A stretch of DNA of 55,534 bases, taken from a virus (Duplodnaviria > Caudoviricetes). Shown here one piece after another: positions 6,969 through 21,406 of the stretch. Position 1 is the stretch's first letter; each line of letters starts with the position of its first letter. The translations under genes and the position numbers were made by a program. The stretch spans positions 1-55,534 of the IMG/VR virus record IMGVR_UViG_3300031277_000003. One strand, written 5' to 3'. The notes under the pieces were generated by a model. The model was not told where the DNA came from, made no database searches, and saw nothing but the letters and a program-made list of their open reading frames with translations.

Positions 6969-7111
6969 TTAAACCAGAGCAAATAATGCCATGCGCTTTC
7001 ATAGTGCAATACCTGATTGCATCGGTGATCTATTTCTGCCGTGGAAATATCATTCAAGGCGTTTACTGGATAGCGGCGAGCGTTCTAACCTTTTGCGTGA
7101 CGTTCCGATGA
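6965..7111 (+). CDS. Small two-helix membrane protein
   Basis: ATGA overlaps at both ends; hydrophobic 48 aa. Confidence 0.55.
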   Translation: MIKPEQIMPCAFIVQYLIASVIYFCRGNIIQGVYWIAASVLTFCVTFR

Positions 7112-7698
7112 AACCATACTATCAGGATTCAGCGGTAACTATATACCATGGTGATTGTCGTGAGATATTGCCGGATCTTGGCCGATTTGATTTGCTGCTT
7201 ACGGATCCTCCTTATGGCTTGAATATGTCCGGTGGCACGTGGGGCAAAAAAATGGATACAGTATATCAGAAGTGGGATAGCAAGCCAGCAGACATTGCTC
7301 ACCTTTTTCAATTTTCAGAAAAGGCAATAGTTTGGGGTGGTAATTACTTTACTCTTCCGCCGTCTCGGTGTTGGCTTGTTTGGAAAAAGCCGTTTTTCCC
7401 TACAATGGCAGACTGTGAGATGGCATGGACTAATTTTGATGCAAACTCAAGAGTAAAAGAGCTTGGTCGCAGTCCTGACGGTAAACAGTTTCACCCTACA
7501 CAAAAGCCGGTCGCTCTAATGTCGTGGTGTATCGGGATCGCTGGTGATGTGGAAAATATTCTCGACCCTTTCATGGGAAGCGGCACCACTCTCCGTGCGG
7601 CAAAGGATCTAAACCGTAAGGCAATCGGGATCGAAATCGAAGAAAAATACTGCGAGATCGCAGCACAACGAATGTGCCAGGAAGTTTTGGAATTATGA
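7108..7698 (+). CDS. DNA methyltransferase (N6-adenine/N4-cytosine, beta class)
   Basis: TDPPY motif IV precedes HPTQKP and the DPFMGSGTT motif I. The start MKPYYQD at 7108 is ATGA-coupled. Confidence 0.92.
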   Translation: MKPYYQDSAVTIYHGDCREILPDLGRFDLLLTDPPYGLNMSGGTWGKKMDTVYQKWDSKPADIAHLFQFSEKAIVWGGNYFTLPPSRCWLVWKKPFFPTMADCEMAWTNFDANSRVKELGRSPDGKQFHPTQKPVALMSWCIGIAGDVENILDPFMGSGTTLRAAKDLNRKAIGIEIEEKYCEIAAQRMCQEVLEL

Positions 7699-8612: not shown

Positions 8613-9964
8613 TGGAAAACTTGGAACGAATACCGCCACAGGCGCTCGACGTTGAGCGTACAATTTTAGGCTCAATGCTGATAGACAAAAAATGTTGCGC
8701 CGTTGCCTTTGATTTACTCAATACCGGCAGTTTTTATGTCGACGCAAACCGGAAAATATTTAATGCAATGAAGGATCTTTTCATTAAATCACAGCCTATT
8801 GATATAATTTCTGTAGTCGACAAGCTTGAAAAAATGGGACAGCTGGATTCAATCGGAGGGCCTTCTTATATCGGAGAGATTTCAGAAGCGATAGCCACGT
8901 TTGAAAATATCGAATATTATTCTAAAATCCTTCTGGAAAAACAGCAGCGCCGGGAAATTATTGAAACCGCGAGTAACGCCATAAACGCCTGTTACAGCGA
9001 TGATGAGTCGGAGGCCGGGGAAATCTCTTCTCGGCTGGTTTCCGGACTCCTGCAGGCGGGGAACGAAGCCAAGGGGGAAATTAAGCGGGTAGGAGAATTT
9101 CTATCCGACGAATTTACCCGACTTCACGTTGTTTGTAATTCCGGGAAGTCGAATGCTTTCATCACAACCGGGATACGCACGATCGATGAAAATATGATAA
9201 TTGAGCAGCATGATTATATCATAATCGGCGCACGTCCATCCAACGGAAAATCTTCTCTCGCAGGTTGTATTGCCCGGCATCTCGGGAAAGAAGGGAAGAT
9301 TGTTCTTAAAATCACCCTTGACTCTACTTCACGCAATGAAGTGTCCCGGGATCTCTTTTCAGAATCCCGAGTGAACCTTCACGATTTTAACCGCGGATTC
9401 GGAACCAAACGCGATTTAGGACGGCTACAGGTTGGCGCCGGACCACTCTATGAAATGCCGGTTTATATCGACGATCCGGCAAAAATCACCCCGGCACAGA
9501 TTTACGCGAAAGCCCTGCAGGTTAAATATAAAACCGGTGGGCTTCACCTGGTGATATTCGATTACATTCAACAGGCGGATTCAGACATCCAGCGCATGAA
9601 GCGGAACGAACAGATAAGCTCGGTTTCAAGAGCATTGAAAGCGCTTCCGAAACAAATAGGTTGCCCGGTTATCGCATTGTCTCAATTGGCGAGATATACC
9701 GACGAGGAGAAAAACCCGCCCACCCTTCGAATGTTGAAAGAATCCGGCGACCTTGAGGCTGATGTGAATATTGCTATCCTTCTCTATTTTCCTGAAAGGT
9801 ATAATACATCAGCAGAAAAAAATATGCTCCAATTCATAATTGCAAAGAATAAGAACGGTTCTATTGGAACATACAAGCTTAACTTTTTAAAGGAATATTA
9901 TTTGATTACCGATCGAGAGGAAAAACATGGAGAACCAAGCGTATACCAAACAGCCGGAGAATAA
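8612..9964 (+). CDS. dnaB: Replicative DNA helicase
   Basis: RIPPQA N-terminal domain, GARPSNGKS Walker A, DYIQ, ALSQL and ESGDLEAD motifs. Confidence 0.95.
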   Translation: MENLERIPPQALDVERTILGSMLIDKKCCAVAFDLLNTGSFYVDANRKIFNAMKDLFIKSQPIDIISVVDKLEKMGQLDSIGGPSYIGEISEAIATFENIEYYSKILLEKQQRREIIETASNAINACYSDDESEAGEISSRLVSGLLQAGNEAKGEIKRVGEFLSDEFTRLHVVCNSGKSNAFITTGIRTIDENMIIEQHDYIIIGARPSNGKSSLAGCIARHLGKEGKIVLKITLDSTSRNEVSRDLFSESRVNLHDFNRGFGTKRDLGRLQVGAGPLYEMPVYIDDPAKITPAQIYAKALQVKYKTGGLHLVIFDYIQQADSDIQRMKRNEQISSVSRALKALPKQIGCPVIALSQLARYTDEEKNPPTLRMLKESGDLEADVNIAILLYFPERYNTSAEKNMLQFIIAKNKNGSIGTYKLNFLKEYYLITDREEKHGEPSVYQTAGE

Positions 9965-14155: not shown

Positions 14156-14569
14156 ATGCGTAATATGTCATTTATGCTAAAACCACAACAGATTATAGAT
14201 GAAACAGCATTCGCTACCCGTCGGCTTGGATGGTGGTTTCTTAAACGGCTTGATCTGGTCTGCGCGGTCAAAAAAGGCATGGGTCTTAAGAAGGGTGAAA
14301 AAGTAGTACGGTTAAAAACAATAATCATCCTCTCCACCTATCCGCAGGAATTAAATAAAATAACGGTTAGGGATGTAGAATTAGAGGGATTCCCAGGCAA
14401 ATCTCCGGAATGGTTCATAGATTTTTTTTGTACATCGCATAAACGATGCTTTCCAAACACGATAGTAAATGTAATCAATTTTACTTATTATAAAAATTGG
14501 GAAGAATTTGGAATTGAAGTAGACAAACAATTTAAAGCCTATCAAAACAGGAAAAAATTAAATGGGTAG
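14156..14569 (+). CDS. ASCH-domain protein
   Basis: MRNMSF...TRRLGW...LNKITVRDVELEGFP...VINF pattern. Confidence 0.75.
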   Translation: MRNMSFMLKPQQIIDETAFATRRLGWWFLKRLDLVCAVKKGMGLKKGEKVVRLKTIIILSTYPQELNKITVRDVELEGFPGKSPEWFIDFFCTSHKRCFPNTIVNVINFTYYKNWEEFGIEVDKQFKAYQNRKKLNG

Positions 14570-14999
14570 ATTATCACAGCAGCTCGGGAAAACCGGGGAA
14601 GAGGCCGCACGGTGGTATCTGCAAAACCTTGGATTCAAAGACGTGGAAAAATTAGCCACCCCTATGGTTAAAACTAAAAAAGGATGGGTTCACAGCAAAA
14701 AATCTTCGGTTGACTTCATCGCATGTATGCCGCAACCCGGGTGCATTTATCCCTATGCCGTCGCAAGGATCGAGGTTAAATATCACAACGGCGACACCCT
14801 ACCACATAGCGTAATGCAACCACATCAGTCGGAAAAACTGAGATCCTGGCACGAGAAAAAACTCCCTGCATTCGTTCTCTGGGTTCATACATGGATAGGA
14901 AACCAAATAGAATGCTATCTTATTGATTATCCAAACCCATACTTTAGACGCGGTAAAGCCCTGTCCGTGGAAACAGCAAAAAAAATATCATGGAAATGA
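14562..14999 (+). CDS. PD-(D/E)xK nuclease, RecU-like Holliday junction resolvase
   Basis: GKTGE...KSSVDF...IEVK...HQ motifs. Confidence 0.7.
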   Translation: MGRLSQQLGKTGEEAARWYLQNLGFKDVEKLATPMVKTKKGWVHSKKSSVDFIACMPQPGCIYPYAVARIEVKYHNGDTLPHSVMQPHQSEKLRSWHEKKLPAFVLWVHTWIGNQIECYLIDYPNPYFRRGKALSVETAKKISWK

Positions 15000-15043
15000 A
15001 AAAAAATAACGCATTTAAACAAATAATATATTAAATTACTATT

Positions 15044-15268
15044 ATGTCAGCAAAAAAAACACAGTTCCCTAAACCAAGCCACGGACTCTATATTGAAGAT
15101 TCTTTGTGGGAATTCTGTAGAGACAAATCAACAGAACGCGGATCATTCCATAATAAAACAGGATCATCAAGCGAATACATCAGACGTGCTTTCAAAGCAT
15201 GGATTTTAAAAGAAATGCCATACTTAAAAAAAGTTATGAAAGATGTTGACTGGGATGAAGCATATTAG
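15044..15268 (+). CDS. Ribbon-helix-helix-like DNA-binding protein
   Basis: HGLYIEDSLWE...SSSEYIRRA pattern. Confidence 0.55.
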   Translation: MSAKKTQFPKPSHGLYIEDSLWEFCRDKSTERGSFHNKTGSSSEYIRRAFKAWILKEMPYLKKVMKDVDWDEAY

Positions 15269-15274
15269 TATATT
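15246..15274 (+). promoter_or_regulatory. Pc-like promoter driving the cassette array
   Basis: TTGACT-N17-TATATT, ending 23 nt before the first GTT crossover. Confidence 0.7.
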
Positions 15275-15280
15275 AATATC

Positions 15281-15304
15281 GTTACACATAAACAACCGTT
15301 GTGT
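15281..15304 (+). other. attI-like primary recombination site
   Basis: GTTACACATAAACAACC-GTTGTGT. The GTT core at 15298 has no upstream attC hairpin and resembles attI1 (TAAAACAAAGTT). Confidence 0.55.
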
Positions 15305-15322
15305 GGAAATAAAGGAGCCTTT

Positions 15323-15430
15323 TATGTCAGTAAGCGCGCGTGTGAAAAGTGAGCCAGTCGGGTCACTGCATGCATACCTGAACGCCCTAGAGGGTTCGAG
15401 TCCCGTAGCAAGTGCGCGCGGAACACTATG
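15323..15430 (+). ncRNA. Cassette 1: tRNA-like structured RNA
   Basis: No convincing ORF. Closing stem GCGCGC and T-arm GGG-TTCGAGT-CCC. Confidence 0.5.
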
Positions 15431-15653
15431 GAAGGCTCCTTTACGTTCACACAACAGCCGCAGCCAGCAATATCCGGCGTTCAGGTCAACGGTCGGGGTC
15501 ATGTCCGAACGTTTAGCCCGTACCGGTGCGGTTGATACCAAGTCCGGAACTGCGCCGGATACTGCTGGCGACCCGGCGAAGCGCCAGTGCGGCCAACCGT
15601 TGTGCAACATTAACCGGTGAGTCTCTATTGGAGGCCGCCGCAAGAAAGGGAAT

Positions 15654-15947
15654 ATGAAATATCTAACAATTGGCAAGTATCGTGGCGATGATTTTCCAGG
15701 CTGCCCGTTCATCATATCAAAAGAACTAGATTCGAAAGAAGAAGCTATTCGCATTTTATCAACTCTTACTTCGTCGTTCTACGATTTGATGATAGTAGAA
15801 ATAACCGACATATTTTTCGAAGTCGCAGACGTTGTAGCGGCGGCTGGGCAAGTGGAATCACCGGTAAACGTCGCACAACAAACGCTACCCGCAGCGGGCG
15901 AAGCGCCCTTGGCCGATGGCACATTGGAAACGTCGGGTAGCGTCTGA
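15654..15947 (+). CDS. Cassette 2 hypothetical protein (reads into attC)
   Basis: RBS-ATG inside the cassette; C-terminus encoded by the attC. Confidence 0.7.
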   Translation: MKYLTIGKYRGDDFPGCPFIISKELDSKEEAIRILSTLTSSFYDLMIVEITDIFFEVADVVAAAGQVESPVNVAQQTLPAAGEAPLADGTLETSGSV

Positions 15948-16006
15948 CCGTTGTGTGCAATTGCCTGCGAGAGCGTTATTGTAGGCCGCGCTAAAAAGGG
16001 GATTTT

Positions 16007-16240
16007 ATGAATATACAATGTCCATTTTGCAAAGAAACCGATTTTGATCTTATTGGCCTGAAGAATCATTTGTTGTCTGGTCACTGCGAAGATTTCAATG
16101 ATGTGATGTCTGTTGAAGAAGAGCAGGCGGCGCGGCAGCATTTTAAGGAGTCGCAGGCCACAGACGCACAACAAACGCTACCCGCAGCGGGCGAAGCGCC
16201 CTTGGCCGATGGCACATTGGAAACGTCGGGTAGCGTCTGA
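16007..16240 (+). CDS. Cassette 3 zinc-finger protein (reads into attC)
   Basis: CPFC...DLIGLKNHL...C motif. Confidence 0.75.
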   Translation: MNIQCPFCKETDFDLIGLKNHLLSGHCEDFNDVMSVEEEQAARQHFKESQATDAQQTLPAAGEAPLADGTLETSGSV

Positions 16241-16297
16241 CCGTTATAAGGCAATAAATTATTCTTTTATATAAATAGTCAAAATGGAGCGGAACTT

Positions 16298-16534
16298 ATG
16301 AAATGGCAAGATGCGAGAATCGCTGAAAATGTAACGGATGAACTTTCCGACCTTAACTCTGTTCTCAATATTGTTTCTCAGATACCGAAAGGTGCTGCAA
16401 ACAGAATATTGCATTACTGTCATAATTATGTTAATAGAGACAGTGATGAATCACATCCAGTTGTTGAAAAGAAAGTGTCTGATGTAATGGAAGCTTTAAA
16501 GGGTTCCATTTTGAAGGATGATAAGGAGTCATAA
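16298..16534 (+). CDS. Cassette 4 hypothetical protein
   Basis: GGAG RBS; stop codon just before the attC. Confidence 0.75.
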   Translation: MKWQDARIAENVTDELSDLNSVLNIVSQIPKGAANRILHYCHNYVNRDSDESHPVVEKKVSDVMEALKGSILKDDKES

Positions 16535-16750
16535 TTTACATGCTTATAACAGCGGCAGCCAGCAATACCGGGCATTGGATAGAGGCGGTATCTAATAATG
16601 TTACGACATTGTAAAATGATACAATATCACGTCGGGCATCGACGCCCGGTACTGCTGGCGAACCGTCGAAGCGCCGATGCCGCTGACCGTTATCGGCAAT
16701 AAACCGGCGAGTCTTTGTTGGAGGCCGCCACAAAATACGGAGCGTTTTTT

Positions 16751-17029
16751 ATGATCCTTACTGAATTAATAGCCGAGAAACTTGATTGCGCACACGACTA
16801 TGTTAAATTATCGTCACTTTTTAAAGAGGATTTTGAAATAGATTCTCTTGATGAAATTGAACTTATTATGGCATGCGAGGATGAATACGATGTTGAAATA
16901 TCTGATGAAGAGGCGCAAGATATTAAGTCCGTTTCCGACGCCGCAAAGCTTCTTCTAGAAAAAGGCGTGGCGGCGGATAAATTAGGAGTCGCTGGTTTAC
17001 AGCCTATAACAGCGCCAGCCCAACATTGA
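16751..17029 (+). CDS. acpP: Cassette 5 acyl carrier protein
   Basis: EDFEIDSLDEIELIMACEDEYDVEISDEEA contains the DSL phosphopantetheine attachment motif. Confidence 0.88.
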   Translation: MILTELIAEKLDCAHDYVKLSSLFKEDFEIDSLDEIELIMACEDEYDVEISDEEAQDIKSVSDAAKLLLEKGVAADKLGVAGLQPITAPAQH

Positions 17030-17080
17030 AACGTCGGGCGGGTGGCGCGGGCCGTTGTGTGGAAATAAAGGAGCCTTTTT

Positions 17081-17210
17081 GAATTGTATTGCGCGACGAA
17101 GAGAACGTAGCCGATGTACGGCAAGGACGAAAAGTGTGGGCATGAGCGACATACGGCGGAGCCTGCAACGTCAAGCTGGCGGAAAATCATCGGTTCGCGC
17201 GACACTAGGG
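17081..17210 (+). ncRNA. Cassette 6: putative structured RNA
   Basis: No RBS-led ORF. Nested stems GCGCGA/TCGCGC and CCGATG/CATCGG. Same terminal inverted repeats as cassette 1. Confidence 0.45.
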
Positions 17211-17401
17211 AAGGCTCCTTTACGTTCACACAACAGCCGCAGCCAGCAATTGCACCGCTCCCCAAGGTGCCCGCAGATGCGTAATAGCATACACCTATCC
17301 AGCCCCTTGCAGCGAGGTGATGCGGTCGGGGGCGGTGCAACAGCTGGCGGGTGCGGCAAACCGTTATCGGCAATTATTGCCTCTTGAGAATTGGAGTTGA
17401 A

Positions 17402-17605
17402 ATGGTCGATAAAAACGGAGTTAAAATTAAGCCCGGATATGTTTTGTATAACCCTCACGATGAATACGGGTACTATACTGTAATTGCTGGTCCAGACGAT
17501 AAATTATTTCTTGGAGATTTAGATTCTCCATTAGAAAGATTTTCTCCGGAAGAGTTTTGGACCATTTCAAATAGAAATAAGGAATCGGCAACAACATGCT
17601 TATAA
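17402..17605 (+). CDS. Cassette 7 hypothetical protein (YopX-like DKNG motif)
   Basis: GGAG RBS; starts MVDKNGVKIKPG. Confidence 0.7.
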   Translation: MVDKNGVKIKPGYVLYNPHDEYGYYTVIAGPDDKLFLGDLDSPLERFSPEEFWTISNRNKESATTCL

Positions 17606-17782
17606 CAGCCGCAGCCAGCAATATGTGGGGCATCATGCTACGGAAGAAAGTGTGTGTGATTGAACGGTGTTGCGCAACATTTATTAAGTCCATGCCCCAC
17701 ATACTGCTGGCGACCCGTCGAAGCGCCGGTGCGGCCAACCGTTATGCAAAATTTCGTTACAAGAGATCGATTGGAGTTTTTT

Positions 17783-18034
17783 ATGCTTGATAAAGATATC
17801 GACACTGTTGACACAATGGTGCATTGGAGTATTACATCAACAGCGGCAAACGAGGCGTGGCAACGCATAAAAAAAGAACTGTCGGAACTCGCTCAACTAT
17901 CGCATAACACAGGCAGCCCAAAATTGCCGACTAGCTGTATTGATTGTCCGTTAAGTTTGATTTGTGGTCAACCGGTAGTTATAAATGATGAGTCGTGCCA
18001 GTATTGTCGTCGGCAACTTCGGGCGGGTGCCTGA
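17783..18034 (+). CDS. Cassette 8 protein; Cys-rich C-terminal half encoded within attC
   Basis: GGAG RBS; the frame runs through nearly all of attC 17902-18045. Confidence 0.6.
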   Translation: MLDKDIDTVDTMVHWSITSTAANEAWQRIKKELSELAQLSHNTGSPKLPTSCIDCPLSLICGQPVVINDESCQYCRRQLRAGA

Positions 18035-18080
18035 CGACGTTGTGTTACATTAAGTTTTCTTGAGTATTGGAGGTTTCAAG

Positions 18081-18428
18081 TTGGCTGTTCATTATTTAAA
18101 AACGTGGCCTCAGTATTTTGCCGCCATAATCAGCGGTGAAAAAACGTTCGAAATTCGTAAAAACGATAGAGAGTTTAAGGTTGGCGACAGCCTTTGCCTT
18201 CAAGAATTTATTCCAAGCCACGAACAGTTTACAGGCCGGGTTTGGGTTGTAATAGTAACATACATTTTCAATGGCGGCTCGTTAGGCGTCTATTCTTCAT
18301 ACTGCGTACTTGGTATCCGCCAACTTTCAACAGCAGAATTAGGAATCAAACTGAACGTCACACAACAGCGGCTAAATGCTACGCCTTCGGCTCCGGCACA
18401 AGGCACATGCGAAACGCACGTCACTTAG
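18081..18428 (+). CDS. Cassette 9 DUF3850/ASCH-domain protein
   Basis: HYLKTWPQYF...GEKTFEIRKNDREFKVGD...TGR; GGAGG RBS with TTG start. Confidence 0.85.
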   Translation: MAVHYLKTWPQYFAAIISGEKTFEIRKNDREFKVGDSLCLQEFIPSHEQFTGRVWVVIVTYIFNGGSLGVYSSYCVLGIRQLSTAELGIKLNVTQQRLNATPSAPAQGTCETHVT

Positions 18429-18495
18429 CCGCAGATGTTAAATGAAATACCGCCCTCTTGAGATTTGGGGGCGCGGCTAAAACCGGGAGGTTATC

Positions 18496-18690
18496 TTGTT
18501 AATAAACATTATTGTTCAGGTTGACACATCTACAGATCCAGTGTACAACAATAAATCTTTTGATGATGTGCGCAAGTATTTATTTGATGAAGCAAAACGA
18601 ATATATGAAGATGGGATTGAATTAATAGACGTTGTTGTCGCCGCGCAGGAGAAAGAGGAATCGGGCGGTACTTCACTTAACATCGGGTAA
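18496..18690 (+). CDS. Cassette 10 hypothetical protein
   Basis: GGAGG RBS with TTG start. Confidence 0.65.
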   Translation: MLINIIVQVDTSTDPVYNNKSFDDVRKYLFDEAKRIYEDGIELIDVVVAAQEKEESGGTSLNIG

Positions 18691-18797
18691 ATGTCGCTTA
18701 CGCTTAATGCTACGCACTACACTTACCCGAGGGCCGTTGTGTGGAAATAAAATTGATTTTTATATAAATAGTTTTTGCTCACTACATTGGAGGTTCT

Positions 18798-18941
18798 ATG
18801 AAAGTTAAAATGATATTTAAAAGGCTCGATTCTCGTCGAGAAGATTTTGATAGAATGATGAAAAGCAACATTGGAGAGCTTAAGGTGCGTGCTAGAATGG
18901 AAACAGGCGGTTATCACAAGCCCGGTAGTCTAAAGAAATAA
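18798..18941 (+). CDS. Cassette 11 small basic protein, 47 aa (not in ORF track)
   Basis: GGAGG RBS; MKVKMIFKRLDSRR...YHKPGSLKK. Confidence 0.65.
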   Translation: MKVKMIFKRLDSRREDFDRMMKSNIGELKVRARMETGGYHKPGSLKK

Positions 18942-19161
18942 CACCGTTCGCAAAATAATATTATGGTAATCAATTTTACATTCACACAACAAACGTTAAA
19001 TTCAATACCGGCATACGGTGCGGGCAATTGTCAATGTCTCATGGCAGGGGTGGAGCCCTCCGAAGTACATTATGCCGGTACTAAACTTAACCTAATCCGT
19101 TGTACAAAATGTCTGGCCGGAGAAAATTGGAGTTCGGCTGGCTTAACATTGGAGGCTTCGA

Positions 19162-19434
19162 GTGAGTGATATCAAAGTTATTTTCCATTGCAAAAAGCAC
19201 GGAATATTAAAGTGCTCCGATGTGATTGCGTTAAATGGCGGATACATTTGTGGGTTATGTTTTAATTCACAGCCAGCCGAAGTACAGGGGGACGGCCAGG
19301 CACATCGTACAACACTGCCAGCCCAAAATATCGACTTAAAGACAGGTGTTATTAATATTAACAATTTACATGGTTCCGATCAGTGTAACGGAACTGAGGT
19401 ACCGGCGCAACTTCTGTTATCGCCAATACGTTAA
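19162..19434 (+). CDS. Cassette 12 zinc-binding protein (reads through attC)
   Basis: GGAGG RBS; CKKHG...ICGLC. Confidence 0.65.
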   Translation: MSDIKVIFHCKKHGILKCSDVIALNGGYICGLCFNSQPAEVQGDGQAHRTTLPAQNIDLKTGVININNLHGSDQCNGTEVPAQLLLSPIR

Positions 19435-19493
19435 ATGAAATTTTTGGCGAGTCTTTATAATAGGCCGCCGCTAACCATAAACGAAAGGGTATC

Positions 19494-19751
19494 ATGTCTA
19501 GGCCAGATTGTTATAATTGTAAAGGGCGCGGTTCTATTCCAGGTGATTGTCATTCAACCTGTTCACAGCGACAAGCCCATGTTGTTGGTGATACTACTGG
19601 TATTCGTGGGGGTTGGTTTAATTGGCCGTGGAATTTTGATCCTACATGGCTAGTATCGTGCGATAGTTTTGTACCATTAAGTGGCAAAGAAGCGGCGGAA
19701 GAACAAGGGGAGTCACCGTTTACTTCTGCTAACAGCGGCAGCACAAAATAG
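19494..19751 (+). CDS. Cassette 13 Cys/Trp-rich phage protein
   Basis: CYNC...PGDCHSTC...GWFNWPWNFDPTWL. Confidence 0.75.
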   Translation: MSRPDCYNCKGRGSIPGDCHSTCSQRQAHVVGDTTGIRGGWFNWPWNFDPTWLVSCDSFVPLSGKEAAEEQGESPFTSANSGSTK

Positions 19752-19830
19752 CGGAGCTACTTCGTGCGCCCCGGCTCTGGCCGGTGCCGCGATCCGTTGG
19801 CGGTAATTGCCGCCTTAGAAACTAATTAAT

Positions 19831-20067
19831 ATGAGCAGCGCATATAAAATAGAGGATACTGGAAAGGAGTTTATTGTAAAGCGGCACGGAGGATGGTCTA
19901 GGGCTATTATCCAGTATACTATGCATAATATTGATAGGTCTTTTTACATGGCAAAGGTTTGTTGCGCTGCTCTAAATGCTGCGGAATCGGCGACAACTAA
20001 CCGCCAACAAACGCTACCCGCAGCGGGCGAAGCGGGCTTGGCTTCGCACATTGGAAACGTCGGGTAG
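19831..20067 (+). CDS. Cassette 14 hypothetical protein (reads into attC)
   Basis: Single ORF filling the cassette. Confidence 0.65.
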   Translation: MSSAYKIEDTGKEFIVKRHGGWSRAIIQYTMHNIDRSFYMAKVCCAALNAAESATTNRQQTLPAAGEAGLASHIGNVG

Positions 20068-20136
20068 CGTATGACCGTTGGTAAAAATTTGCCGGGCTTG
20101 AGATAATAAAGCGCGGCTCTTTTAAGGAGGTATCAG

Positions 20137-20424
20137 TTGCTTACAGTTCGCTTTCCTAATGGCCAAGCCGTTCAGTATAACACTGCAAATTATGTTAAGA
20201 GCTCCACCGAATATTCAGACATATACGAGAAGAAAGATGGCGTATGGGTGGCTCAAGTTCCTAATACTTGCATTATTGAAGCTGTCAATGCCTGTCGTGT
20301 GTACCATGCCCCGGAAAGCGAACTGACGGCCAGTATTGCTAATCAAATAGAAGTTTTAGGTCGGAAGTTACTCCGCGCTTATCGTGATGAGGCCCGGAAA
20401 ACTTCTACCAACAAGCGGCTATAA
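20137..20424 (+). CDS. Cassette 15 hypothetical protein
   Basis: AAGGAGG RBS with TTG start. Confidence 0.75.
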   Translation: MLTVRFPNGQAVQYNTANYVKSSTEYSDIYEKKDGVWVAQVPNTCIIEAVNACRVYHAPESELTASIANQIEVLGRKLLRAYRDEARKTSTNKRL

Positions 20425-20508
20425 GGCTCGCGGACTCGTCCCAAATTGCAAGGCGACTTCGCATAGCCGCTGACCGTTACACGCAATAAAAATTTAAGGA
20501 GGTTTCCA

Positions 20509-20769
20509 TTGGATAAAATTTTGGCTTTTTTCGGATTGTGCAGAATCGAGAAGGCGAAGGGTGTTTCACTTTGCATGCATTTGCATTACGTCAGGCAGGT
20601 TCAATATGGTGTTGAAAAAGATTTCGGCGTTAAGCCTAATCAAGAGGCTATTGAGATAACAACATCGGCGTGGTTACAAAATTTCTATCAAGCCATGAAA
20701 GAGTCTGAAAACTCGAACGGCGTCAATATTACAAACGCGCCAAAATTTTCTGATTGCTATGAAAATTAA
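20509..20769 (+). CDS. Cassette 16 hypothetical protein
   Basis: AAGGAGG RBS with TTG start. Confidence 0.7.
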   Translation: MDKILAFFGLCRIEKAKGVSLCMHLHYVRQVQYGVEKDFGVKPNQEAIEITTSAWLQNFYQAMKESENSNGVNITNAPKFSDCYEN

Positions 20770-20975
20770 ATTTTTACAGTCGTATAACAGCCGCAGCCAG
20801 CAATACCGGGCATTGGATAGAGGCGGTATCTAATAATGTTACGACATTGTGAAATGATACAATATCACGTCGGGCATCAGTGCCCGGTATTGCTGGCGAC
20901 CCGGCCAGGGGCCAGTGCGTGAGGACGGTGTACAATGCCTGCCTTTTTAGAATATAGGCGGGCGGAAAGGAGCTT

Positions 20976-21359
20976 ATGAAATATCAAGAAGCTATTAAAA
21001 CGGTACAAGCGGCTTTGCGAAGAGACAAAGAGTTGTATTATTCTTTTCAGGCTAATATCGCCATGCAATTTGTTGACGAAAATCGCCGTCAAGGAAGTCG
21101 CGATTCATATAAAAAGGTTCACGGAGTTGCGAACGAAGCAGCAAAGAATTTTCTTAACTTGCTTATTAAACCAGTCCGCCCGCAGAAAAGCGGAAGCGGC
21201 AGTCACTATACACAACAAAGCAAGGCAGGCTCCGAAGACTGCGCCCAAATTGCCGCTCGTATGCGTGAACTTGCTTCTGAACCGTGCAAGGCCGGATTTG
21301 TTCCAATATCAACAGAAACCTTAAACGAATGGGCGCGGCAACTTCTGCCTTGCTCATGA
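20976..21359 (+). CDS. Cassette 17 protein (reads through the final attC)
   Basis: AAGGAG RBS; YYSFQANIAMQFVDE...ANEAAKNFLNLL motif. Confidence 0.75.
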   Translation: MKYQEAIKTVQAALRRDKELYYSFQANIAMQFVDENRRQGSRDSYKKVHGVANEAAKNFLNLLIKPVRPQKSGSGSHYTQQSKAGSEDCAQIAARMRELASEPCKAGFVPISTETLNEWARQLLPCS

Positions 21360-21406
21360 AGTTATCCCATACCTATTTCAACCATATGCTTCATAGCTGA
21401 TATATA

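Follow-up and report, generated by a model that had tools for sequence, protein, structure and literature searches.

Clusters of attC sites lacking an integrase (CALINs) have been reported in phages, one of them with three attC sites, in a study that used IntI1 on phage attCs (PMC9892861). Here an array of this type is described from a 55,534-base virus record of IMG/VR (IMGVR_UViG_3300031277_000003, referred to as a whole as the window), which is 100% complete by CheckV, with particular attention to the first cassette of the array (cassette 1), whose body lies at positions 15298 to 15455. The array has about 16 units, each lying between ..AAC (R'') and GTT.... (R') cores that enclose imperfect palindromes of about 50-160 nt, and the inverse core/core arrangement of attC was seen at 16 listed sites and in families of repeats. 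Like integron cassettes and phage CALINs (PMC9892861), the units have inverted R''/R' cores, a G|TT junction and palindromes of this size range, carry promoterless small genes in one orientation, occur in different contexts, and reside in an integrase-less phage. Unlike them, complementarity here runs 12-35 nt past the R box into the cassette body, forming what we term the P1/P2 clasp, and many open reading frames (ORFs) cross the attC to stop just before R'. No description of such extended end pairing beyond the R box was found in the literature searched, which was covered mostly at listing level.

Since no integrase accompanies the array, it was classed as CALIN-type; the tyrosine recombinase family PF00589 had no matches in the window (100% complete), in G002 (96%) or in G001 (56%). 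The first bases of a cassette are complementary to its own R'' and not to that of its neighbour (for example in cassettes 1, 2, 4, 6 and 11), a hallmark of integron cassettes. The sequence CCGTTRYRY occurs 15 times, compared with 6.4 expected, and eight of the 15 are on the + strand within the array. When the bottom strands of five attC sites were folded as DNA, three gave a 7-bp R stem, a one-sided unpaired spacer of 4 nt and an inner stem of at least 12 bp (z -3.1 to -3.8), and in the remaining two the hybrid R box was unpaired in the array context. The element at 15298 to 15455 forms the body of a short integron-type cassette that is both first and shortest among the roughly 16 of this integrase-less phage, and it is probably not an RNA gene. 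Its identity as a cassette, its mobility, its covarying stems and its open frame are observed, and action of the stems in RNA and translation of the frame are inferred. The interpretation that we favour for its function, to which we assign a probability of about 50%, is that cassette 1 is small and translated, with the two ends of its message pairing across the cassette's ribosome-binding site and ATG. The parts of the array and cassette on which this interpretation draws are as follows.

15298..20933 (end at about 20930), + strand: whole cassette array, about 16 cassettes, the last site degenerate
15296..15304, + strand: array entry point, an attI-like junction CCG|TTGTGT and left boundary of cassette 1, from contig junctions and CCGTTRYRY enrichment
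15299..15599, + strand: cassette 1, about 301 nt, payload plus attC; its start TTGTGTG complements its own R'' CACACAA
15298..15307, + strand: P0 5' side, the R' box GTTGTGTG plus GA, pairing with 15446-15455
15310..15326, + strand: P1 5' arm, 12 Watson-Crick pairs followed by T.G, T.G, A-T, T-A and G.T
15312-15317 and 15324-15326, + strand: ribosome-binding site AAGGAG and ATG, both within the P1 5' arm
15334..15340, + strand: P2 5' arm GCGCGCG
15341..15413, + strand: variable payload interior, with a hairpin at about 15348-15367 and a T-loop-like hairpin at 15392-15404
15414..15420, + strand: P2 3' arm
15421..15431, + strand: conserved 3' motif (G)AACACTATGG, whose final TATGG (15427-15431) is the start of the P1 3' arm
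15427..15443, + strand: P1 3' arm
15446..15455, + strand: P0 3' side, the R'' box CACACAAC of attC1
15448..15605, + strand: attC1, with R'' at 15448-15455, inner arms at 15463-15479/15553-15569 and R' at 15599-15605
15324..15620, + strand: 98-codon open frame from the P1 ATG, crossing the 3' arm and the whole attC

The inverted repeat that bounds the cassette body is a conserved three-stem clasp (P0, P1 and P2), in which the opening ~45 nt of the cassette pair with a stretch of ~45 nt ending at R''. In cassette 1 the arms at 15298-15321 and 15432-15455 are 24 nt each, 88% complementary and 110 nt apart, with 12-nt cores at 15310-15321 and 15432-15443. An inverted repeat, a GCGCGC closing stem and a T-loop-like hairpin had been noted within 15298-15455 in the original prediction, which was made by a model from the sequence letters and a list of ORFs, and all three are present, the stem (GCGCGCG, 15334-15340 with 15414-15420) being P2 of the clasp. 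The 16-nt start motif GTTRYRYGGAAATAAA was found three times in the window (0.06 expected), a number reached in none of 100 shuffles. A pattern built on the attC led to two other viral contigs (L045 and L047) with homologous attCs, each following an element of the same type; homologues of attC1 are present in L045, L047 and P0002. A pattern built on the 3' motif gave 18 metagenome loci, 11 of them with a matching 5' arm in a cassette context, two cut by contig ends (L057 and L063) and five rejected as chance matches (L053, L058, L059, L061 and L062), and a structure-based scan added three further members. In total the family has 16 distinct members, three in the window (15298, 17054 and 18736) and another 13 from viral or metagenome contigs elsewhere, with same-contig copies (L048, L049, L054 and L065) and an identical element (L052) left out. 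The two sister cassettes in the window are as follows.

17054..17234, + strand: cassette 6, with identical P0/P1 arms, a different 133-nt interior and TTG in place of ATG
18736..18990, + strand: cassette 11, with different, covarying arms and a 47-codon ORF (18798-18941) that has a GGAGG ribosome-binding site

Pairs were counted from anchored registers, as MAFFT alignments misregistered the 5' arms. P0 corresponds to the R'/R'' box and has 7-10 pairs, and the spacing from the R box to P1 is a fixed 4 nt on both sides in all 16 members. Positions 1-4 of P1 are invariant (TAAA/TTTA), while positions 5-9 each show three to four types of Watson-Crick pair, and all 80 cells at these five positions are Watson-Crick. 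Pairing in the P1 core amounts to 94.5%; when partners were shuffled among members the mean was 57.7% and the maximum 75%, and none of 2000 shuffles reached the observed value. Position 13 of P1 is T.G in 16/16. P2 has 5-11 bp in every member, at a near-constant offset of +7 to +15 nt, and is made of at least 10 different sequences. Conserved in the loops are TTrTArG (5' side) and ACAyTAnGGwAG (3' side), and the 3' motif ACACTAnGGAAG or a close variant is found in 15 of the 16 members, L047b being the one that deviates. The interiors, of ~65 to 250 nt, are mutually unrelated, and the payload of cassette 1 is not conserved in the 15 others. A signature of the form GTTRYRY-GAAATAAA-arm ... ACACTAnGGAAG-arm'-TTTAC-R'' can be used to find such arrays. 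Two other identities for the inverted repeat were considered and rejected: a miniature inverted-repeat transposable element or transposon with terminal inverted repeats, since the arms covary rather than keep one sequence and the ends are cassette junctions, and a mirror-image attC, since the R box is inverted relative to the inner stem.

Mobility of cassette 1 was evident from a comparison of public contigs over 15200-15700. In run X2, positions 15297-15461 recur with 0 differences beside a different left flank, and the 3' portion of attC1 is also present there, with another cassette behind it. X2, X3 and X4 follow the phage backbone to 15295-15302 and then carry three different first cassettes, and X7 has a variant of the payload (8 differences in 129 nt) that is joined after 15449 to a different R''/attC. 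Protein searches added P0003, in which the same payload peptide, without any change, follows a different upstream read-through, and P0004, with a payload peptide variant having six residue changes. The same cassette is therefore found in different arrays with its junction at G|TT (X2, X3, X4, X7; P0003, P0004), and the contig junctions at 15298 together with the shared payloads identify 15298 as an entry hot spot and cassette 1 as a discrete mobile unit. As to the source of the contigs from other runs, three are labelled salt marsh, one marine sediment and one wetland metagenome. BLASTN of 15250-15650 against 50,697 phage records gave no matches, and the exact 22-mer of the 5' arm was absent from the viral contigs. 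In 185,579 representative genomes the attC pattern gave 30 single matches, approximately the number expected by chance, none of them with the attC partner arm plus CCGTT. Fourteen related phage loci, located via the AAA_24 protein, lacked the motif and showed no similarity to 15000-21400 at the nucleotide level, indicating that the array is not a feature of the phage lineage. A complete, integrase-less phage with about 16 cassettes that are exchanged at an entry site suggests that phages replace their small accessory genes by cassette shuffling.

As RNA, the + strand of cassette 1 folds with -69.8 kcal/mol compared with -45.5 +/- 4.1 for shuffled sequences (z -5.9; 0/200 shuffles as good), and the - strand with -59.5 kcal/mol (z -4.8). 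In the predicted + strand fold the 5'-3' pairing covers the ribosome-binding site and start codon, and P0 and P1 together form a near-continuous duplex of about 27 bp with a 2x2 internal loop. Across the family the + strand clasp is the more stable one in 12 of 16 members, and by 6-16 kcal/mol in the six that have an ATG in P1. This advantage is due to the conserved T.G pairs and points to the transcript as the molecule in which the stems may act.

In the original prediction the region was described as encoding a tRNA-like RNA rather than a protein, a tRNA mimic or Y-RNA-like decoy, possibly directed at anticodon nucleases, that was mobilised as a cassette. The mobilised part of that proposal holds, as the element is discrete, mobile and strongly structured; the tRNA-like RNA inside it does not, given the results of ARAGORN, Rfam and the family comparison. 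A broader version, in which the payload is a functional non-coding RNA (a T-loop tRNA mimic or decoy, or some other kind) released by cleavage within the P0-P1 duplex, for example by RNase III, is in our view quite unlikely. It would account for the strength of the fold, and a duplex of about 27 bp, such as P0 plus P1, is of the size of an RNase III substrate. It would also account for the hairpin GGG-TTCGAGT-CCC at 15392-15404, a T-arm with a TTCRANY loop, which as a single 13-nt motif is a perfect match to the T-loop consensus shared by tRNA, tmRNA, mascRNA and Y RNA. In P0004 the hairpin-encoding stretches are unchanged and four of the six residue changes fall in the seven codons between the hairpins; if these are single-base changes, two of the four would turn Watson-Crick pairs of the predicted fold into G.U, as deduced from the protein.

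The T-arm is nonetheless not formed in the minimum-energy fold of cassette 1, and, unlike tRNA-like RNAs, the cassette has no acceptor, D or anticodon arm, and lies below all detection thresholds, and its T-loop hairpin is not conserved in the family. The remark in the original prediction that there was no clean cloverleaf was correct, as ARAGORN found no tRNA or tmRNA in the window. On 15250-15650 it gave nothing at thresholds of 100% and 90%, and at 70% only a 'tRNA-???' with a 2-nt anticodon. Rfam gave no hit at gathering score and none at E<=10 on 15200-15700 (501 nt), and on the 119-nt interior only the 13-nt T-arm was matched, to mascRNA positions 35-47, at 11.1 bits against a cut-off of 42.5 (E 8.5); no Y RNA or other Rfam family was thus detected. 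It is the closing stems, and not the T-loop interior, that are conserved in 16 cassettes. Neither conservation nor covariation was found for the tRNA-like part: none of the 15 other members, not even cassette 6 with its identical arms, has a related interior, and the payload copies P0003 and P0004 are at the protein level only. A non-coding RNA also leaves the ribosome-binding site and the 98-codon stop-free frame unexplained. A tRNA decoy would have been a striking finding, and the evidence does not support it. Two other candidates were set aside, namely a tRNA fragment from an integration site (there is no acceptor-stem or CCA context) and an intrinsic terminator (none on the + strand).

The open frame of cassette 1 has counterparts elsewhere in the family. 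Eight members, including cassette 1 (AAGGAG-N6-ATG), have a purine-rich ribosome-binding site in the P1 5' arm followed by ATG, or by TTG in cassette 6, and in seven of these eight the start-codon frame is free of stops to the end of the element. Summed over the eight, the start-codon frame has one stop, compared with 32 and 16 in the other two frames; the chance of a stop-free frame is 0.07-0.27 per element, which multiplies to about 1e-6 over the seven. Seven members enclose a small ORF with its own ribosome-binding site. The clasp ORF members named are L055 and L060, which encode homologous proteins, L050c, which encodes a 32-residue hydrophobic peptide, L050a, L066, L067, L047b and C11. 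In post hoc counts, the ORF crosses the complementary 3' arm in 12 of 13 members with the ribosome-binding site or start in P1 or P2, and stops ahead of the 3' arm in all three with the ribosome-binding site in the loop. On a codon log-odds measure trained on the long genes of the phage, the frame of cassette 1 scored +0.23, compared with -1.69 and -0.34 for the other two frames; control cassette ORFs scored +0.09 to +0.61, and frame 0 was best in 14/14 controls and in 7/7 family ORFs. The peptide predicted for cassette 1 is hydrophilic. Strongly hydrophobic mini-peptides were seen within the clasps at L051:770-922 (- strand; starting MVVGALLVWFLGL...) and L050:228-388 (- strand; 32 residues, MKLEDLPLLTIIAAAVGSF...), and these are reminiscent of type I toxins or holin-like peptides.

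On the interpretation that we favour, transcription of the 3' arm would allow the + strand clasp to close over the ribosome-binding site and ATG, and initiation would be limited to nascent RNA or to RNA opened by ribosomes. Ribosomes reading through the 3' arm would keep the start site open, which would explain why the frame has no stop in that arm or, further toward cassette 2, in the attC hairpin. The payload within the clasp would be free to vary.

In hok-type type I toxin mRNAs and in the MS2 maturation gene, long-range 5'-3' pairing hides the ribosome-binding site. Cassette 1 resembles these messages in that, in the predicted fold only, the two ends of an mRNA with a small ORF pair so as to conceal the ribosome-binding site and start, which would make translation dependent on nascent or unfolded RNA; it differs from the hok type in that its peptide is not hydrophobic (those of L051 and L050c are) and in that the pairing coincides with the boxes of a recombination site. 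Stems processed by RNase III enclose rRNAs or flank the early genes of phage T7, and the clasp shares with them about 27-38 bp of duplex interrupted by small internal loops, flanking a payload in a polycistronic transcript, while its sequence motifs differ.

Several results weigh against a small translated message. So strong a stem covering the ribosome-binding site and ATG would be enough on its own to prevent translation. The codon usage of cassette 1 was not clearly separated from that of stop-free shuffles (z 1.34, p 0.084), nor was that of the short group as a whole (Stouffer Z 1.2; cassette 6, z -2.1). The conserved 3' module is crossed in all three phases by the seven open frames and the resulting peptides are unrelated, so that the module is conserved as nucleic acid and not as peptide. 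No Pfam or PHROG match was obtained for the product of cassette 1, half of which is attC-encoded and has little resemblance to a folded protein; the frame of L050b meets a stop after 15 codons; and the six residue changes of P0004 are all non-synonymous, in a protein comparison that cannot reveal synonymous changes. In four of 16 members the - strand clasp equals or exceeds that of the + strand in stability. Finally, extended 5'-3' complementarity is also found in long-ORF cassettes whose ribosome-binding site lies outside the stem, and translational gating is therefore not the general role of the clasp.

This last point bears on a second explanation, which we find rather doubtful, in which the clasp acts in DNA. 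In the excised cassette, a single-stranded circle, P1 and P2 lie immediately beyond the R box and would lengthen the attC hairpin to a rod; the rod would take in most of the 301-nt cassette and could make the folded recombination substrate more stable or shield the circle. Within the array, clasp pairing would compete with the two flanking attC folds and tune excision, and the payload of cassette 1 would be incidental. When the R boxes were excluded, nine of the 16 window cassettes ranked 0-1 of 30 against non-own end pairings, at most one of which was stronger than the own pairing, with a mean pairing energy of -14.5 kcal/mol for own ends compared with -8.3 kcal/mol for non-own ends. Complementarity beyond the R box is thus array-wide and not confined to the clasp family, and it includes cassettes with ORFs of 90 amino acids, in which an RNA stem would have to span >300 nt. 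The constant 4-nt distance of P1 from the R box on both sides, the shuffling of cassettes at these same junctions, the members with an equal or stronger - strand clasp, and the P1 core, which shows no strand bias (3 T.G and 4 C.A cells), all agree with a role in DNA. The bottom strand is the strand recombined by integron integrases, and on it the conserved T.G pairs at P1 positions 13-14 become A.C mismatches. A role in DNA is also at odds with the + strand preference of the other 12 members, has no integrase to act on the structure in the searches for PF00589, and leaves unexplained both the stop-free frames and the occurrence of 3'-arm read-through only where the ribosome-binding site or start is in the stems.

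The position of cassette 1 within the array raises a third explanation, concerning the expression of the cassettes behind it. The site lying ahead of it is as follows.

15246..15274, + strand: promoter-like match TTGACT-17-TATATT, sigma-70-like, 10/12, the best + strand site in 14900-19200

The element had been called promoter-proximal, and it is the first cassette of the array, 24 nt past this best promoter-like match in a scan that was overall at chance level (10 sites compared with 8.8 expected). It is possible that cassette 1 is a regulatory, gene-less first cassette whose product is irrelevant and which sets the expression of the array, either as a 5' stabilising stem-loop of the transcript from the promoter-like site at 15246-15274 or as a leader frame that, when translated, opens attC1 and so spares cassette 2 from polarity; we consider this unlikely, though its frame does span the entire attC and ends 34 nt ahead of the ATG of cassette 2 (15654). 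In integron arrays, the rate at which a cassette is translated is reported to determine how stable the polycistronic mRNA is and how strongly the cassettes downstream are expressed (PMC11511950), and ORF-less cassettes with regulatory promoter activity have been described (PMC6557892; bioRxiv 10.1101/2023.11.21.568050). Cassette 1 is like the ORF-less cassettes in being very short, with a payload of ~150 nt that matches no protein family, and unlike them it has a ribosome-binding site, an ATG and a 98-codon frame, with no promoter-like site on the + strand within 15298-15455 in the sigma-70-like scan. Against a regulatory role specific to the first cassette, the same type also occurs inside the array (cassettes 6 and 11), the first position is not fixed, as other variants of the phage have different first cassettes, and the frame of L045 ends within its attC.

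Whichever molecule it acts in, we tentatively suggest that the clasp could be a previously undescribed cis element that joins the ends of a cassette across the recombination boxes and makes each cassette a self-contained unit. If so, it would gate or process the message of each cassette independently of its neighbours in the transcript, and in the excised single strand it would fold the whole mini-cassette into a rod-like circle; cassette 1 would be the minimal form of such a self-contained unit. Acting in RNA, the clasp would represent a new form of control or insulation of expression in cassette arrays; acting in DNA, it would bear on the folding and recombination of excised cassettes.

Phage genes identified elsewhere in the window include those for a DnaB helicase, DNA methylase, capsid, portal, ClpP-like protease and TerL. 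The gene at 14562-14999 is Holliday-junction resolvase-like, and its protein has no relatives among the viral contigs. In two loci with an 80% identical AAA_24 protein (L001:10900-16800 and L002:11300-16900), the place corresponding to the array is occupied by several kb of dense repeats with 31-nt and 5-nt periodicity and GCACAGGCA-type units, at up to 54 copies per repeat family; nothing like these repeats was seen in the window.

Among the other cassettes, cassette 5 (16751-17029) encodes an acyl-carrier-protein-like product (phrog_5934, E 2e-12) and cassette 9 (18081-18428) an ASCH/DUF3850 RNA-binding-type protein (PF12961, E 1e-28); no family was matched by the remaining cassette ORFs. 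Many cassette ORFs continue through the attC and stop just ahead of R' (TGAC-CGTT), examples being those at 15654-15947, 16007-16240, 19831-20067 and 17783-18034 of the window, and read-through is also seen on the - strand of L047 at about 9367-9530 plus the adjoining attC. As a result of this read-through, unrelated proteins have common attC-encoded C-terminal tails, such as ...QQTLPAAGEAPLADGTLETSGSV, or ...NTGSPKLP...RQLRAGA, in which the loop of one site contributes a CxxC...CxxC stretch. In the ORF cassettes a 5' leader motif (GAGTC)TCTTGAGAATTGGAGG precedes the start codon (window 15600-20500) and a GGA(G/A)TC motif precedes the 3' arm; GAGTC fits the pattern GANTC, and a gene for an N6/N4 DNA methylase (6991-7698) is present in the phage. 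Long stop-free frames are present on the - strand at 15224-15754 (176 codons) and 16798-17373 (191 codons), spanning cassettes 1 and 6, their attCs and cassette boundaries, and we read these as by-products of palindromic, GC-rich sequence. In the last attC (20781-20933), GGT replaces the GTT crossover triplet at about 20927, and this end of the array may be recombination-dead.

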